This document shows positions 42,958 to 52,001 of a DNA stretch of 64,000 bases, in pieces. The stretch is from Octopus sinensis (taxonomy: Eukaryota), in the NCBI RefSeq assembly GCF_006345805.1, contig NC_043011.1, positions 12,970,464 through 13,034,463 on the forward strand. The letters are read 5' to 3'. The first letter of the stretch is position 1. Every line of letters begins with the position of its first letter. The notes below the pieces were generated by a model, which ran no database searches, was not told the DNA's origin, and saw only the letters and a program-made list of their open reading frames with translations. The position numbers and the translations under genes were made by a program.

Positions 42958-43099
42958 TATGTATGTGTGTATGTATGTATATATATATATATATAATTTT
43001 AATCCAAAAGGGAAACAAAAAAACAACAACAACAGGAACAATTACAGTATTATTATTAATAGGCGCTCAGGAGATGGAAGATACTTTTATTTTTTATTT

Positions 43100-45045
43100 G
43101 TTTCGGTCAAAACCCTGGGAACAACAATCAGGTGAAAGAAATGATTGCACATGCAATAGGGGCCAGTGTAAAAACCACCTTGAAGAACCACATAGTAAAG
43201 TTTAACAAGAAACTATACATGCAGGTTGAAGGTGCAGCCATCGGTGTCGCTGTAGCTGGAGATGTGGCTGGCCTCTTCAGGACCTGGTGGGACAGAAAAC
43301 TTAAACAAATGTTAGCAGAACAGTCCACAACTCTTCTTCTCTACAGTAGGTATGCAGATGACATTAACATCATAGTTAGAACCAACTCTAGTGACGGTAA
43401 TGTAGAGACTGAAAAGAACGTAATGGAGAGCATCCAGCAAATAGCTAACTCCATCCACCAAAGTATCAAGTTAACTATAGATTATCCCACAAAGCACCCC
43501 AACAATAGACTCCCTGTACTTGATACTGAACTTTGGTTAGAGACTGTGAACAACAGAGTGCAGCTCCTCCACTCCTATTACATGAAACCCATAGCTTCAA
43601 AATATGTTGTTCACAAGAACTCAGCTTTGTCACACAACATGAAAATTAACATAATGATAGCAGACTTAGTTAGGATAATGAACAATGTGTCCCCACTGTG
43701 CGAACCCTATGAAATGAAAGAATGTATACATAAATTCATGCACCGCGTACAGTTCTCTGGCTATGATCAGAAAGATAGGGTTCGAGTATACAGCGGGGCT
43801 AGAAAGAAATTAGATAACATTATACGTAATGATACCTGTGGTACCTGCCTTAGATATAGAAACAAAGAATGGAATAAGATACAAAGAACTTGTGACAAAG
43901 TAAGCCGGGCGAATACGTGGTTAATACCGACAAATATTAAGGAGTGATGTTTATAGAGGCCACAGCCCATGGAGAACTAGCCCGTAGATTTAGAAAAGCA
44001 CTGAAGGAGACCAAACTCAACATTAAGACTGCTGAAAAGCCAGAGAACTCCGTCGAATCACAACTATGTAGGGTGTACCCCTTTGAGAATACCATATGCA
44101 ACAATGATAACTGCATGGTATGTAGGATTGGCCCCGGCATTAACTGTACAACTAGAAATGTAGTTTACGGCATAAGACATCTAGGGGAGACATCTAGGAG
44201 CATTGCGGCAAGACTAAATGAACATCTGAGACAATATGACGACAAAAAACAGTCCTCCATACTCTACCAACATGCCAAAGACCAACATGGAGGCAACCTG
44301 GGTTAACTTGACACCCGCATCTTATCCAAGCACCCAAAAGCCCCAACACTCAGACAAATACATGAAACTTCTCTAATACTAAATAGGAAATATACATAGT
44401 AGATATCATACCCCGCTACCCAGTTTACACGGGTAGAGTAGAATAGTAAGTGGGCTGTTAGGTAGATACATGTATGTGTGTATGTGTGTATGTGTGGGTG
44501 TATGTATACATGTGTATATGCACATGTATGTAAGCATATGGATATGAAAATAAACAGATCAATATACAGACGGTTAGGTACATGGGTTATATGAACAGAC
44601 AATCAAGCATACGCAAATGGAGACTGAAACACATGACCATATATACACACACACACTTTACTTCACACAAGGACACATATGGAGACATGGGTCCACACAT
44701 ATAGAGATGCCCATCCATACATACAAACACGGTACACACTCAGATATGCACACATAAGGAGACAGAGGTGCATACATATACAAATACAGGCACACACACA
44801 CATACATAAAAAGCACACAAACACAGACACGTAAGCACATGAATATGCAGAATACATACATACAGATGCACACGCATACACACATATATATCTATGCATA
44901 CATACACATATAAACATACACAACACATGCATACATACATATATACCTATGCATACATGCACATATACACATACACACACAGGCATGCATACATACATAC
45001 ATACATACATACATACATGCATGCATGCATAGGCACACACACACA

Positions 45046-45093
<48 letters not shown>

Positions 45094-45740
45094 ACCCACA
45101 CAATGCTCACAAGCAGACAAAAGGGAACGCGGTGTAAATAACGGACAGAGTCAAAACTATTGAAAAGGTTGCATGACGCAACGAAAATTTTAGGACAATA
45201 AACATTTTTAAAAACGTGGAAATTTTACCGGTGAGTGTGTTACATAATAAGGCACAAAAAGAAAATTACTCTCCCCTCAGGCTGAGTAATAAGTAAGGAA
45301 CGTTTTGAAATGTGCACAAGCAATATATTAATTTGGTGTTCGGTGAAAGAAGAGAGTTATTAATGTTTCGAGTATAGCTCTTCGTCGAAAAGGAAAAAGT
45401 CCAAAGAGAAAGAAACAAAATAAAGTAAAAATCGCCAACAATCCACGTGGCGTTACATTTCTGAAGTGACAAGAAATATATATAATTCGTTTTTGGATTT
45501 GGTTTGCAAGATTCTTTACGTGAGTTCGTGTGTTGAAGCATATTCTATTGTGTCTGTGGAGAGTAATTTTCTTTTTGTGCTTTATAATTTAACACACTCA
45601 CCGGTAAAATTTCCGCTTATTTCTTATATATATTTTCCTAAAATTTTCGTTGCGTCATGCAACCTTTTCAATAGTCTGTCCGTTATTTACACTGCGTTCC
45701 TTGTGTGTGCATGTGTGTGTGAGAGTATGTGTGTGTGTGC

Positions 45741-45794
<54 letters not shown>

Positions 45795-46292
45795 TGTGTG
45801 TGTGTGTATTATGCAACAGAAAGCAGTCCTCCATACTCTACCAACATGCCAAAGACCACCATGGAGGTAACTTGGGTCAACTTGACATCCGCATCTTATC
45901 CAAGCACCCAAAAGACCCAACACTCAGACAAATACGGGAGTACGTCCTTATAAATGAAACCTCCCCAATACTAAATAGGGAATATACACAGTAAATACCA
46001 TACCTCCATACCCATGCATGTATAGGCACACACACATACTGACCCACTGACCCACACACATGCGCACAAACAAACAAAAGGGAACGCGGTGTAAATAACG
46101 GACCGAGTCAAAACTATTGAAAAGGTTGCATGACGCAACGAAAATTTTCGAACGATAAAAATTTTTAAAAACGTGGAAATTTTACTGGTGAGTGTGTTAT
46201 ATGATAAGGCACATGACTCTCCCCAGACACAATAGAATATGCTTCAACACACGAACTCATATAAAGAATTTTGAAAACCAAATCCAAAAACG

Positions 46293-46295
<3 letters not shown>
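43100..46295 (+). mobile_element. Penelope-like retroelement: 5'-truncated RT (43132-43947), GIY-YIG endonuclease (43944-~44400), direct and inverted pseudo-LTR copies
   Basis: QVEGAAIG, RYADD, LPVLD, YYMKP..NSAL; C..C..C..RNVVY..GETSRSIAARLNEH; endonuclease tail repeated at 45820-45992; pLTRs at 45118-45276, 45450-45700 (inverted), 46075-46295. Confidence 0.92.
45157..45193 (+). ncRNA. Hammerhead variant with U3-A8 core (other copies 45638-45674 minus, 46114-46150 plus)
   Basis: cta TTGAAAA g gttgc-atgac-gcaac GAA aatt T tag followed by AATAAA, inside the Penelope pLTR. Confidence 0.65.
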
Positions 46296-46343
<48 letters not shown>

Positions 46344-46595: not shown

Positions 46596-47561
46596 GTGTG
46601 TGTGTGTCAGGCTGAGTAATTAAGTAAGCAACGTTTTGAAACATGAAATTCATCACAATATATTTCAACAATGCAGAAATTTTATTCTTCAAAGTAAGTA
46701 CCATTACAATCAACACATTTTTGCCAATGAGTTACAAGTTTGTTTATTCCGGTTACATACAAATCTGGAGTTCTGAAGCTGATGAACTCTTTGAACGCAC
46801 TTTCAGCATCGGTTTGATTTTTGAACTCCTTCTCTCGCAGGAAACCATCACGGTACTTGAAGAAGTGGTAGTCGATAGGAGAAAGGTCTGGGGAATAAGC
46901 TGGGTGGGAGATCACTTCGTAGCCAAGTTCCCTCAACTTCTGGAGCGTCATTAGTGAAACGTGTGGTCGAGAATTGTCATGAAGAATGACACGAGCATTG
47001 TCATGAAGAATAATTGGCCCTCTTCTGTTGACCAGTCTGGGACAGAGAAGTAGCAGTTTTTCGTTCATTTACGCAATTTCATGGCAATGTTTCTGCAGTA
47101 ATGGTTTTTCCGGGTTTTAAGAAGTTATAGTGGATGAGTCCAGCAGTACACTACCAAACAGTCACCATAACCTACATTTCAAAGAGCTCGGATTGAGAGG
47201 TTTTCGATGCTCCATTTTGGTCCAACCAGTGCGAAGAACATTTCTTATCTACAGAATCCACTTTTCATCGCAAGTTACAATACAGTCAAGAAATGGATCG
47301 GTCTAGTTACGGAGAAATGACGAGCAAATTTCATATCTGCGCATTTTCTGATTTTGATTCAAATCGTGTGGTACCCATTTGTCGAGTTTTTTGATTTTCC
47401 GATCGCATGCAAATGGTTGCAGGTAGTTTTCTGGCTAACTTGAAGTTCTTTTGCCAGTTCTCGAGTGGGTTTACGTGGGTCTTTCTCAATGACGTCCTTT
47501 TTTGAAGTTGCTCGAATATCGCGCTTTGACAGCGCCATTTCAGATGATTGTAACAGCGATT

Positions 47562-49605
47562 TCATTACCCACAAGGGGCTTAACACAGAGGTACGAATAC
47601 ACGTAAGGACCGTACAAAACAAACAGGACAGCATAAAGAAAAGACACAAAAGTGGGCTGAAAAAGCGAATGCAAAAAGATTGAGGTGCCACTCGCACCAC
47701 ACACCGAACGATGTCATTGAGTATTTTTCTCAGTCAATGTCATCGCATATATTTTCTGTTTCTCTTTTAGAAAAAAGTTTTTCACAATAACATTTCAGAC
47801 ATTTTTAAAAACCTTTACTATCTAAAAATCACTAGTACATTCGTGTTCAAATGACTGAGGGCAGTGAATCAATCACCACCTCCGACCCCAACGGATTCAC
47901 ATCCGCTCCAAATTCTCATTCAATTTTAGGTAATTTTCTTTATCCATTAGTACACACTTCAATTCAGGGGATGGGGTTCCCCTACCGGCAACTCACCTTT
48001 ATCGTTGATTTCAGTTTTTTAAATTTTTCTATGCAGTGCTGCATTTTTCCCCTTACATTCACCATGAATACTGTTTTATGGGGAGAAGGCCGTGAGGTTT
48101 GCGGCTTTTGACTGTCTGCAAATGAATATGAAGGTGCTGGGCCGGTGTCCGGAGGGGTGGAACTGGAAGTGGTGTCTGTTACGCAAGGTGTTAATGGTGG
48201 AGAGATGTCCTCTGTAAATGGGTTATAGGAGATGATCGTGTTAGATGCTTGTTCTTTGTGTGTGAAGTTATGAGATATTATTTTAGGGGGAGTATCTTTT
48301 GTATCCCCCTTTTTTTTTCTTGGTAGTTGGTTCTTCCTTGATGCTGCTTTCTTTCTCGCTGCTGATCTCGGTTGATTTTTTCTCCGGATGGGTTTCTTCC
48401 TTGGGGCTGTTTTCGGACTGCATTGTTGTGGTCTCGATTACGTTTTGCTTTTCTATTGGGATGGCTTGTATTGGGTTGGCAACAATGTTGGCTGGTTTCT
48501 TCTCCTGCCTTTTGTCTGTTAGGTTGGCGGGTTTTCCAGTACCGATGCTCATTGATTCTTCTGGTTGTAGTGGTGTGCTAGGAGCAGGGTATGCTTCGTG
48601 TTGCGAAACCTGAGGACACTTGGTCTTTAAGTGACCCATTTCCCCACATTTCTGACAACTTGGGCTTCTGCTCTCTACTCTAATTCTCAGTTTAGTGTCG
48701 TCTGGTAGGATAATTTGATCTGAGATCTCATCTAAGTCACTTGGGGTGGCTTGGATTGTTACATCCAGGCCATCGCCCCATCAATTTTGTTGTGTCTTAG
48801 TTGCTTTCAATATTTTTCCCGTCTTTTAAGTTCAACATTATTGCTGCTATCAACTACATCTCGTCAATTTCAGAAGGGACTTCCCCAATTTTAATTCTGG
48901 ATGTCCTTTTTCGGAGATAAGTCGGCAGTAACACCAGTTCTGCCGATGGCGCTATGGCCTGGATGTAACGATCCAAGCCACTTTGGTAGAGTGTTTTAAA
49001 GCTTCCTCTTCTGAAGCAAACCTCACCTCCACCGTACCAAGAGGCTTTGCTTTGTTTAAAATTTTCACCTCATTCCAAATTTGGCTTAGACATTTTTCGA
49101 CGGCATCCTCAGATGTCATCTCTAATTTTTCGTTGCCAGTAAACAGTCCGCTACCATACAGTTTTCCTCTTGGTACTCTCTCTAAACTCTTCTGGTGAGG
49201 GTGTGGGTTCAATCTCACATTCGTCCCCTCCTTCTGTAGTAATTCCATGTACTCTTTGAGTTTGTTCTGTCTGACACTCAGTCGCTTTTGACTTGGGCTG
49301 CTGATGCGTAACTGCCTCTTTTGGCCATGGTCACGTAACCACTTTCGGTGTTTTGAGCTTCCGTTAAGTCGCTCTCCAGTTCAGGCCAATGATCCATGAA
49401 GTTGCCCATACTCTACATAAAATACAAGTTTCGCCCCTAAATGGTGTAAAACCAGTAATAAACACAAGCCTGCAAACGCAGGCAGAGCGCCAAAAGATGC
49501 AAAATCAATAGCAAACAAAAGGCAATCCCAAAAGGGAAAGCCTACAACAATGTAAAACCAACAAGTACTTAGCTTCACAGTAGAAAAAAACGTCTTTTCA
49601 ACTCG
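47562..49605 (-). mobile_element. ORF1-only (HAL1-like) Tx1/L1-clade retroelement 1
   Basis: Broken gag-like ORF1 with zinc knuckle CQKCGEMGHLKTKC; no RT seen; bounded by AGATGATTGTAACA(G/A)CGATT repeats. Confidence 0.75.
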
Positions 49606-49625
49606 AGATGATTGTAACAACGATT

Positions 49626-51786
49626 TTTTATTGTCCACATGGTGCTTAACATAGAGTGACAGTACAAAGATGGACAAAAACACAGAAGTGGGGGAAAAGA
49701 TTAAACGAATGAGAAGGGTGGTATAAAAAATGAATGGATGAAATGAAGGCCACTCGGACCCCACAATCCAAGTGATCTCATTGAAACTTTTTAAAAAAGC
49801 AATTAAACACTTACTATGTCCGTGTTAATTTCTTTTAAAAGCTCATGATAGCTTACCGTTGACTGCACTCCTCTGGTATCAATTTCCTTTTGTGAGATAA
49901 TTCGTTCATTTATTGGCCACAAGGGCTAACAAAAATCAATTAAAACATAAAGGGACAAAACACAGGACGAAAGTTACAAAGGGTTTTGTCCGTTTGAAAA
50001 AAGTCCGTGTACAAAAGAAGGATAACAACAAAATGTAAGTAACAATTAAAACTCCCAATAGGAGGAAGCACTTCGAAAGTTTACTCGTGGAAAAACCCAT
50101 AAAAGCCACGGGAGCCTGGTCAAAAGGGGGGTAGAGAGCCCCTTTCTCTTTTTATATTTCCTTTTAATCTTTTTTTACAGGTGTATCCTCAGAATTGGTC
50201 CGTTCATACTGACCATTGTTGCGACATTCACCCACCTTTCAATAAACTTGCTACCAGACAGCACTTCCCTCTCTACTCTCATCTTCCTTTTCAAGTGAAA
50301 CTTGAAAAAGTTGATGAGATAATGACATTTCTCCCGTAATCCTCGCGTAATCTTTGTGAGTTCTTTCTCTCCATTAATACACATTTAACTTGCGAGGGCA
50401 CTCCCCCACATCCTTCAATATCGACTTTTATCAATTCGTCCACATTGTTTATTTCATCGCACAACTCATCAAGTGACTCATTGCAAAAGAAACAATACAA
50501 CTTTTTTCATAGGGTTGAAGTTGGGAAATTATGGGGCTCCTGCGTGTTTGTAGCTTTAGTATCAGTGTTTGGTGGGATAGGGTGAGGGTTGGTTTTCTTG
50601 CGGGGGGAGGATAAGGCAGAGTCTGGCGGAGTGGGGGTTGGATGTGTGGGGTAACATCAATATCCTGAGTTCTCTTTTTCCAGCTTACCGTCTTCCATTC
50701 TTCCCTTTTCTCTCCTCAATTTGTGTCTCCTTGCCGGGCTTCTCCACACTCCCTCCTGTACCACTTGTCATTGCAGGAGGTAGAGGGGCGATTTTCCTTC
50801 GGACCTGTAGTACTGCTGGTGTCTTTGTGATCGGTGGAGAGCATTCCCCTCTTATGTGGCCCTTCTGGCCACATTTATAATATCGGGGCTTCCTGCCCAC
50901 CACTATAACTCTTAATACCACCTCCTCACCCACCGTTATGGTGTCGACCATTCTTTCAAGGTCTTCCGGGGCAGCCCGCATGATTATCTTCAAGGTCTGC
51001 CCTTGCCAATTCTTCGGTGGCGTTCACGTTACTTGGAGGACCTCTATCTTCTGTTCTACATCCAGTAGTATTGCGGTCACCAGCCAGGCGACATTTACGT
51101 CCGCAGGAATCTCTTCCACCCTTACCCTGGAAGCAGCTTTCCATGATAAGTAAGCAAAAGTATTACCTCGTCCGTTTTCAAGAAGGCTACCGAATGTTGT
51201 CTGGCCTTTTCCTAGGATGCAAATTGGACCTCCACAGTTGCGTATTTCCTCCCTCTGGCAAGGTAGGTGACATCCTGCCAGATGGGTCTCAATGCTTTCT
51301 CAACTTGTGGTTTTTTTACTATCTCCATTCTCTTTGCATCCAGATTATACATTCTATACATAATTGCCTTTTTTGTGTGCCCTTTGTAACTTCACTAGGA
51401 GGGGTCACCTTTACTTTGTGCCCTTCTCTTCGCAGGATTTCTTTGTACTTGTTCAACTCCATCTTCTTAAAACAAATCTCTTTTCTTCTTTCACCAGCCG
51501 CAACTGCAAAATTCATTATTTTTTTTCCACCTTGATTTTTTTTCATCTTCTGGTCTGCAATATCCAAACTTCTCGGTAATTCTTTTTCAGACATCGTTAC
51601 GTCTGAAGAATCCAAATCTTCAGACATCATGAAGACACAATTTATGCGCTTCCTCCTTGAAACAAGGTGGACAACGTTAACAAAACTACCGTAAGGCAGC
51701 AATTAATAACAAAAATAATTCTAATTCAACAATGCTTCACTAACCTCTCTAACGACGCACAAACAACATCACGAACAAGCCGGTCC
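49626..51786 (-). mobile_element. ORF1-only Tx1/L1-clade retroelement 2, containing a 3' ORF2 fragment (~49906-50352)
   Basis: ORF1 homologous to element 1 with knuckle YKCGQKGHIRGEC; fragment REVLSGSKFIERW with its own GCCCTTGTGGCCAATAAA tail; same target repeat at both ends. Confidence 0.72.
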
Positions 51787-52001
51787 AGATGATTGTAATA
51801 ACGGTGAAAAGAAATCAATGTTAATTTATTGATGCATTTGAACAATTCTATGTCTGTATAATCAGTCAAGTGCAAAAACATTATTAAAAACATTTTTAAT
51901 TCTGCAAAACTCCATTACAATTTTTTTGTGGTTCAAAACGTTGCTTGCGTTTTACTCAACCTGATAGATAAATTCCTATATATATATATATATATATATC
52001 T

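Follow-up and report, generated by a model that had tools for sequence, protein, structure and literature searches.

ORF1-only LINE derivatives inserted in series at a 17-bp site ahead of a mariner transposase gene in Octopus sinensis, with a likely dependence on the transposon promoter

How do two retroelements without a reverse transcriptase come to lie one behind the other between the 5' region of a mariner transposon and its transposase gene? This question is raised by a stretch of 64,000 nucleotides of Octopus sinensis (contig NC_043011.1, positions 12,970,464 to 13,034,463), hereafter called the window and numbered from its first letter. Two elements, EA and EB, are delimited there by three copies of a short motif. 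The reading that we favour, to which we give a probability of about 0.8, is that EA and EB are derivatives of long interspersed nuclear elements (LINEs) that have only the first open reading frame (ORF1), are mobilised by a partner LINE at a 17-bp mariner site and likely depend on the promoter of the host transposon. On the minus strand, the order is TA, terminal inverted repeat (TIR) and 5' region, target, EA, target, EB, target, three bases, ATG and 3' TIR, the parts being the following.

46607..46640, minus strand: 3' TIR of the mariner, decayed, its flanking TA lost in a TG microsatellite
46682..47538, minus strand: remnant of the mariner transposase, with its ATG at 47538 and DD34D spacing in 46682-47068
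47542..47558, minus strand: copy 3 of the 17-bp target, three bases before the transposase ATG
47559..49605, minus strand: element EB, ORF1-only, 2047 bp; its ORF1 begins at about 49397 and has the zinc knuckle at 48610-48660
49606..49622, minus strand: copy 2 of the 17-bp target, separating EA from EB
49623..51786, minus strand: element EA, ORF1-only, 2164 bp; its ORF1 begins at about 51630 and has the zinc knuckle at 50841-50879
49902..50314, minus strand: 5'-truncated copy of a dispersed LINE nested inside EA, from a family with an ATT-repeat tail, including the C-terminus of ORF2
49893-49901 and 50315-50323: 9-bp duplication of the nested LINE
51787..51803, minus strand: copy 1 of the 17-bp target
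51804..51964, minus strand: 5' region of the mariner, with the TIR (from 51964 inward) and a putative promoter; TA at 51965-51966

The motif had been described in the initial annotation as a 20-mer present three times. It is found exactly at 47542, 49606 and 51787, with no further match in the window at up to two mismatches, and shuffled windows contain on average 0.01 matches (0 of 100 shuffles reach three). It does not belong to the termini of the elements: it has 195 exact matches genome-wide, and of the first 30, all but one (29) proved to be mariner sites without an insert, the remaining one being occupied at the identical base by a truncated relative of EA. The site is thus native to the mariner family, where it lies near 163-180 of a coding mariner. 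Its length had to be corrected, as only 17 bp, located three bases before the transposase ATG, are duplicated by each insertion and the other letters are the 3' end common to the elements. In EB, this end shows an AATAAA-type signal five bases ahead of the target and no poly(A).

EA, EB and the transposase all lie on the minus strand, and the insertion just before the ATG at 47538 was correctly recognised. The TIRs had been called intact; they are decayed, with about 29 of 34 positions matching and one gap (read by eye), and the TA is present at the 5' end and lost at the 46607 end. The transposase has lost about 190 bp near its 5' end and carries stops and frameshifts. Its second and third Asp are separated by 34 residues in the open reading frame 46682-47068 (DD34D), and PF01359 is recognised in a related copy, L174 (L numbers designate loci). 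Since the middle junction is bridged by contigs of three public runs and the junction between EB and the transposase by two of them, the arrangement is not an assembly artefact. The locus is found again, at 99.9% identity, on the unplaced scaffold G000:C8347, which is probably a haplotype duplicate.

Two elements of about 2 kb had been proposed. This holds for EB, but EA measures 1.76 kb in its other copies (about 1.75 kb in the window once the nested insert is removed), the rest being the overlooked nested LINE, a 413-bp fragment of an abundant and dispersed family. A derivation of EA by deletion from an autonomous LINE, read from a 'FIERW' remnant of ORF2, was discarded because this remnant belongs to the nested LINE. 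As initially described, the ORF1s of EA and EB are homologous and diverged; both are frameshifted and share 35-42% identity over the two best ORF1 segments. The zinc knuckle (PF00098) is detected above the cut-off in EB (E 1e-4) and below it in EA (E 0.017). No reverse transcriptase (RT) was found in either element, the ORF2 remnant of the nested insert aside.

Clustering and trees distinguish five families at the mariner site: the autonomous family A (13 units) and the ORF1-only families EA (about 21), C (11), EB (4-6) and D (4). Family A corresponds to the autonomous partner that was to be sought through the 3' tail. One of its copies, L127, spans 4697 bp between two target copies and encodes ORF1, an apurinic/apyrimidinic endonuclease (APE), an RT and a C-terminal domain, all broken. 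The family matches PF00078 (E 6e-17), zf-RVT (E 1e-5) and, from a fragment and below the cut-off, PF03372 (E 0.004), and is colinear with a 1155-aa ORF2. In the RT tree, its members make up one clade (0.99), which belongs to the same group as the families targeting Tc1 transposons; the dispersed ATT-tailed LINE falls outside this group. The 4.7-kb LINE of family A is likely the helper of the ORF1-only families. The nearest named RT relatives of this partner come from Argonauta hians and Acanthosepion pharaonis, and the ORF2 of a close relative matches human L1 ORF2p with E 3e-50 versus E 4e-24 for R2, which places it only in the L1/Tx1 group. Elements of the Tx1 clade carry a CCHC zinc knuckle in ORF1. 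Of the features of this clade, an ORF2 with APE and RT is present in the partner, and a zinc-knuckle ORF1 in EB (above the cut-off) and EA (weak).

Could EA and EB be recent internal deletions of an autonomous LINE rather than self-propagating families? Internally deleted copies of family A do occur at the site (L126, L130, L147 and L163). However, the EA (~21), C (11), D (4) and EB (4-6) units have a constant structure, and ORF2 was searched for in EB, EA, C, D and T units with no match except the nested insert of the window EA and one stray weak match in L146. In addition, their ORF1s are only 37-44% identical to that of A and fall in clades of their own: EA, C and D form with two Tc1-borne elements a clade (0.97) that is sister to A, and EB groups with another Tc1-borne family. 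No autonomous element whose ORF1 is more than 80% identical to that of EA or EB was retrieved in the EA, EB and partner searches. We therefore regard recent deletion as very improbable. Searches with the ORF1s gave no homologue among longer proteins and no Atlas match, neither of which shows novelty.

The comparison of EA and C points instead to ORF1s held by purifying selection after the loss of ORF2, since third codon positions diverge most: the values for positions 1/2/3 are 0.34/0.31/0.59, and about 0.21/0.21/0.28 within families, as obtained from tblastn alignments, which favour conserved parts. HAL1 elements, a known group of LINE derivatives, were amplified as a family with an ORF1 kept by selection, and the same trait is found in the octopus ORF1-only elements. 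All copies are now dead, being about 8-10% away from the commonest letters of their family, much as the mariner is.

How specific is the insertion? With equal-length patterns and three mismatches allowed, 737 empty and 57 filled mariner junctions were counted, i.e., about 7% filled; a few of the 57 are tandem junctions, and a duplicate scaffold also contributes to them. All 58 tail-plus-target junctions examined lead into either the start of the transposase (48) or a further element (10). The searches from the element side used queries devoid of the target sequence, and 30 loci were examined for each of EA (57 matches), EB (37) and the end of the partner ORF2 (47). For EA, two of these loci are the window itself and its duplicate, and 17 represent the nested LINE. 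The other 11 are EA loci, of which 10 have a target copy at an end; the 11th adjoins mariner DNA with the site deleted. Among the close relatives of EB that reach an end, five of six are at the site, and the sixth has a target copy with four mismatches and no mariner around it. The unrelated flanks that would have spoken against targeting are thus not what the other copies show; they share the mariner flank. As for the partner, 8 of 11 matches to a motif of its 3' untranslated region (UTR) are at the site. The loci retrieved with its ORF2 end include 14 at the site (the query and one duplicated pair among them), two beside a mariner that has been rearranged, 10 copies that derive by amplification from a single off-target insertion, and four further off-target copies. 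Counted as independent insertions other than the query, 12 of 19 are exactly at the site and 14 of 19 are associated with the mariner. Targeting is therefore strong but not absolute. In the available text of a study on crocodilian LINEs, a preference is recognised when more than 20% of the flanks agree and the duplication is fixed (PMC4494074); the corresponding values here are 10/11, 5/6, 8/11 and 12/19, with a 17-bp duplication.

The ten off-target copies on C18 and C9019 were discounted as independent insertions, being a single insertion amplified with its flanks. They form a tandem segmental cluster (L254-L268, G000:C18:36.28-36.52 Mb and C9019), in which a partner insertion lying antisense in the ORF1 of a relative has been amplified about ten times.

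The terminal ~40 nt of these LINEs are also those of a short interspersed nuclear element (SINE) with at least 69,044 matches, and a specificity test based on the tail only was dropped because its matches are this SINE. None of the 64 tails at the mariner site is a SINE; by simple arithmetic, about 0.01 random SINE copies would be expected on the target base. In 20 sampled stretches (L181-L200), every tail seen is that of the SINE, with unrelated flanks and without visible preference, L199 being without a match.

The same distribution might be reached without any retrotransposon targeting if one or a few old insertions had been multiplied as cargo of the mariner, a movement between the TIRs that the initial annotation had envisaged. 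The inserts and the mariner are indeed of similar age: mariner copies differ from the commonest letters by 7-8% and inserts by 8-11%, and the invasion was therefore contemporary with the mariner burst. Furthermore, the loci L156 and L168, separated by 24 kb on G000:C17, show 92% identity over the full mariner, both TIRs and the insert included, and have unrelated flanks. This pair, in which the insert has been copied along, counts against our reading and may reflect a cargo move; it may equally reflect gene conversion. A second candidate pair, L272/L274, was ruled out as a segmental duplication. Cargo movement nevertheless fails to explain the family as a whole. Five families are involved, whose ORF1s are 35-45% identical. 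Inserts truncated to many different lengths (46, 68, 132, 318 and 1145 bp) each lie between their own two target copies, and tandem orders differ between loci. Among 59 mariner copies, the sharing of common variants is 0.060 for filled pairs of the same family, 0.055 for filled-empty pairs and 0.068 for empty-empty pairs, so that copies filled by the same family have no more mariner variants in common than filled-empty pairs do. EA shows supported subfamilies, while the mariner flanks are star-like. Because of the truncated inserts, the varied tandem orders and the star-like flanks, the insertions into the mariner are independent, and multiplication as cargo is the least probable of the explanations considered here.

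At L133, L158, L159 and L161, a single mariner site holds three to five distinct family members in head-to-tail arrangement; some of these units are fused by deletions between them.

What would such elements gain from this site? In the 5' region of the mariner, an AT-rich TATA-like stretch lies ~28-30 bp upstream of the target, and dependence on the mariner promoter is likely because the site coincides with the predicted transcription start of the transposon. Three features hint, at the level of sequence, that the transcript would run from the 5' duplicate into the 3' duplicate. Firstly, full-length 5' ends carry a four-letter core of the downstream promoter element (DPE), as given in PMC4748587, mostly at a distance of 31-32 bases from the start of the duplicate (at 35 in three ends, absent or shifted in two, read by eye). 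Secondly, 9 of 64 rows, seven of which belong to one A subfamily, have a different letter at the first position of the 3' duplicate (read by eye). Thirdly, the DNA after off-target copies of A often begins like the target, over its first 4-8 bases in L255, L275 and L207.

Taken together, the process may be pictured as follows. EA and EB would have entered the 17-bp site successively by target-primed reverse transcription, with the endonuclease and RT of the 4.7-kb partner LINE. At the 5' edge of the site, the APE of the partner would nick the bottom strand; its nick in the top strand would lie 17 bp further on. Transcription would begin within the 5' duplicate and continue into the 3' one; the first bases of the latter, present in the transcript, would pair with the nicked DNA. 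The passengers would produce their own ORF1p and borrow ORF2p, as they likely borrow the promoter of their host transposon. Each insertion would regenerate the target, leading to tandem arrays, and would cut the transposase off from its promoter.

Sister families were found in two families of Tc1 transposons, which they hit precisely 30-31 bases downstream of a TATA box. In Tc1 family a (DD34E), the more distant relatives of EB are inserted 25 nt before the ATG, at the base preceding the predicted initiator (L217-L225, L383 and L390; e.g., G000:C1:135767277-135769335). The ORF2-bearing copies L383 and L390 use the same site as the ORF1-only inserts. In 8 of 10 empty copies of this family, a canonical TATA box begins 31 bases ahead of the second target base (30 and 32 in the other two), and 120 empty and five filled junctions were counted for one tail type. 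In Tc1 family b (DD34E, 26-bp TIR), the equivalent base is hit, with the same TATA spacing, both by ORF1-only elements and by a sister family that is autonomous (loci L321, L326, L331, L334, L337, L338, L341, L345, L346, L350, L372 and L398). Six of 32 scoreable copies are filled (34 copies examined of 39 non-query matches to the coding region). Both ORF1-only lineages have switched targets. In other related LINE families, the copies end at microsatellites made of TC or TCTA repeats (L389, L392; L218:2879,4521). Tx1 elements of the Kibi type likewise end at microsatellites.

These sites can also be explained by recognition of a short motif alone, the position at the start of transcription being a by-product, since the motif would be the initiator, and the elements having full internal promoters. 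The targets in the two Tc1 families match in their first seven bases, and the off-target partner copies followed by the beginning of the mariner target fit such recognition. So does a relative, L380, because it lies antisense inside another transposase at a similar short motif, away from any promoter. A DPE-like core in full-length 5' ends is moreover known from internal promoters of LINEs (PMC4748587, in its available text). Yet the target of the mariner and those of the Tc1 families have no more than about 5 of 13 positions in common and occupy the same place relative to the ATG and to an upstream AT-rich box. In addition, the spacing of 31-32 bases between the first base of the duplication and the DPE-like core is compatible with the canonical +28 to +32 only for a transcript that begins in the target, and three inserts in Tc1 family a carry a variant target copy at their own 5' end. 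Recognition of the motif alone seems less likely than our reading, though clearly more probable than deletion or cargo.

Several observations weigh against promoter-dependent, partner-driven targeting, besides L380 and the pair L156/L168. The TATA-like stretch of the mariner is not canonical. The ORF1 of EB is only about 37% identical to that of the partner, its helper being assigned only by the common tail and site. Five of the 19 independent partner insertions and 3 of the 11 matches to the 3' UTR motif are located elsewhere, a T1 copy in L311 ends in unrelated DNA, and only 3 of 9 copies of the partner clade of Tc1 family b directly adjoin this transposon.

A wider proposal can be drawn more tentatively, its chances being somewhat below even: a radiation of octopus LINEs would have specialised on the start sites of Tc1/mariner transposons, completing a promoter from the host and silencing the transposase, with two ORF1-only lineages hopping between helpers and targets. 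In such a radiation, three unrelated transposon families would be hit at the base before +1, and the promoter would be composite, the TATA box and initiator coming from the target transposon and the downstream element from the LINE.

Elsewhere in the window, a 294-aa open frame with an RT-like YADD motif (43063-43944, plus strand) is probably a Penelope-type remnant. To the left of the mariner, copies of a Penelope-like 3' region occur in direct and inverted orientation (45103-45256 / 46060-46213 and 45476-45574 / 46206-46304).

The principle of LINEs living on DNA transposons is already known from Xenopus Tx1L, from crocodilian Tx1-Mar with SINEU and, for ORF1-only passengers, from HAL1. The closest case, described by Kojima (2015; PMC4494074), is that of the crocodilian Tx1-Mar LINEs and their SINEU passengers in Mariner-N4_AMi, for which transcription from the flanking mariner was proposed. 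Both cases associate LINEs, of Tx1 type in crocodilians and putatively so in the octopus, and non-autonomous passengers that prefer a mariner, with tandem copies sandwiching a duplication (16 bp there, 17 bp here), and in both hitchhiking is excluded by truncated copies. However, the octopus target belongs to a coding mariner and is hit at one base before the ATG, always in sense orientation, whereas the crocodilian mariner is non-autonomous and is hit in two regions, near 240 or 830, one of them antisense; moreover, the octopus target is unlike the quoted 16-bp site. The octopus passengers are protein-coding ORF1-only elements, as opposed to SINEs headed by small nuclear RNA, and sister families occur at the predicted start of two Tc1 families. 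Xenopus Tx1L and Tx2L are likewise sequence-specific APE LINEs inside DNA transposons, Tx1D and Tx2D (PMC1950540, PMC6719617, PMC4494074); these targets are non-autonomous and of piggyBac type, and the passages available to us do not mention ORF1-only passengers.

HAL1 elements are non-autonomous LINE derivatives that encode only ORF1p and have arisen more than once, but they derive from mammalian L1 and are not described as target-specific in the accessible text (PMC5753468), whereas in the octopus elements ORF1 contains a zinc knuckle and the site is fixed. HeT-A, with TAHRE and TART, resembles them in being Gag-only, in taking its RT from a partner and in forming head-to-tail arrays at a defined place; as far as the source text available goes, it differs in belonging to the Jockey clade and residing at telomeres, without target-site duplication inside a transposon (PMC6719617). 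By the tests made, the octopus elements work like Tx1-Mar and HAL1 combined and are members of neither. A 2026 repeat annotation of Octopus vulgaris reports L1-Tx1 families and mentions, in its accessible part, neither nesting nor a target (PMC13282606). Our literature search, which covered neither Repbase reports nor subscription journals, found no account of site-specific passengers limited to ORF1 or of LINEs at the start sites of Tc1/mariner transposons; such families may already be listed in those sources.

These elements add a mollusc case of LINEs living on DNA transposons. Within the literature searched, what is new are the site-specific ORF1-only passengers, maintained by selection, and a target at the predicted transcription start in three transposon families. 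The related endonucleases with different targets, together with passengers that change target, constitute a natural series for studying whether LINE specificity resides in the endonuclease or in the 3' end of the RNA. Lastly, 4-19% of the transposon copies are filled between promoter and ATG, and these insertions may have dampened the transposon bursts.

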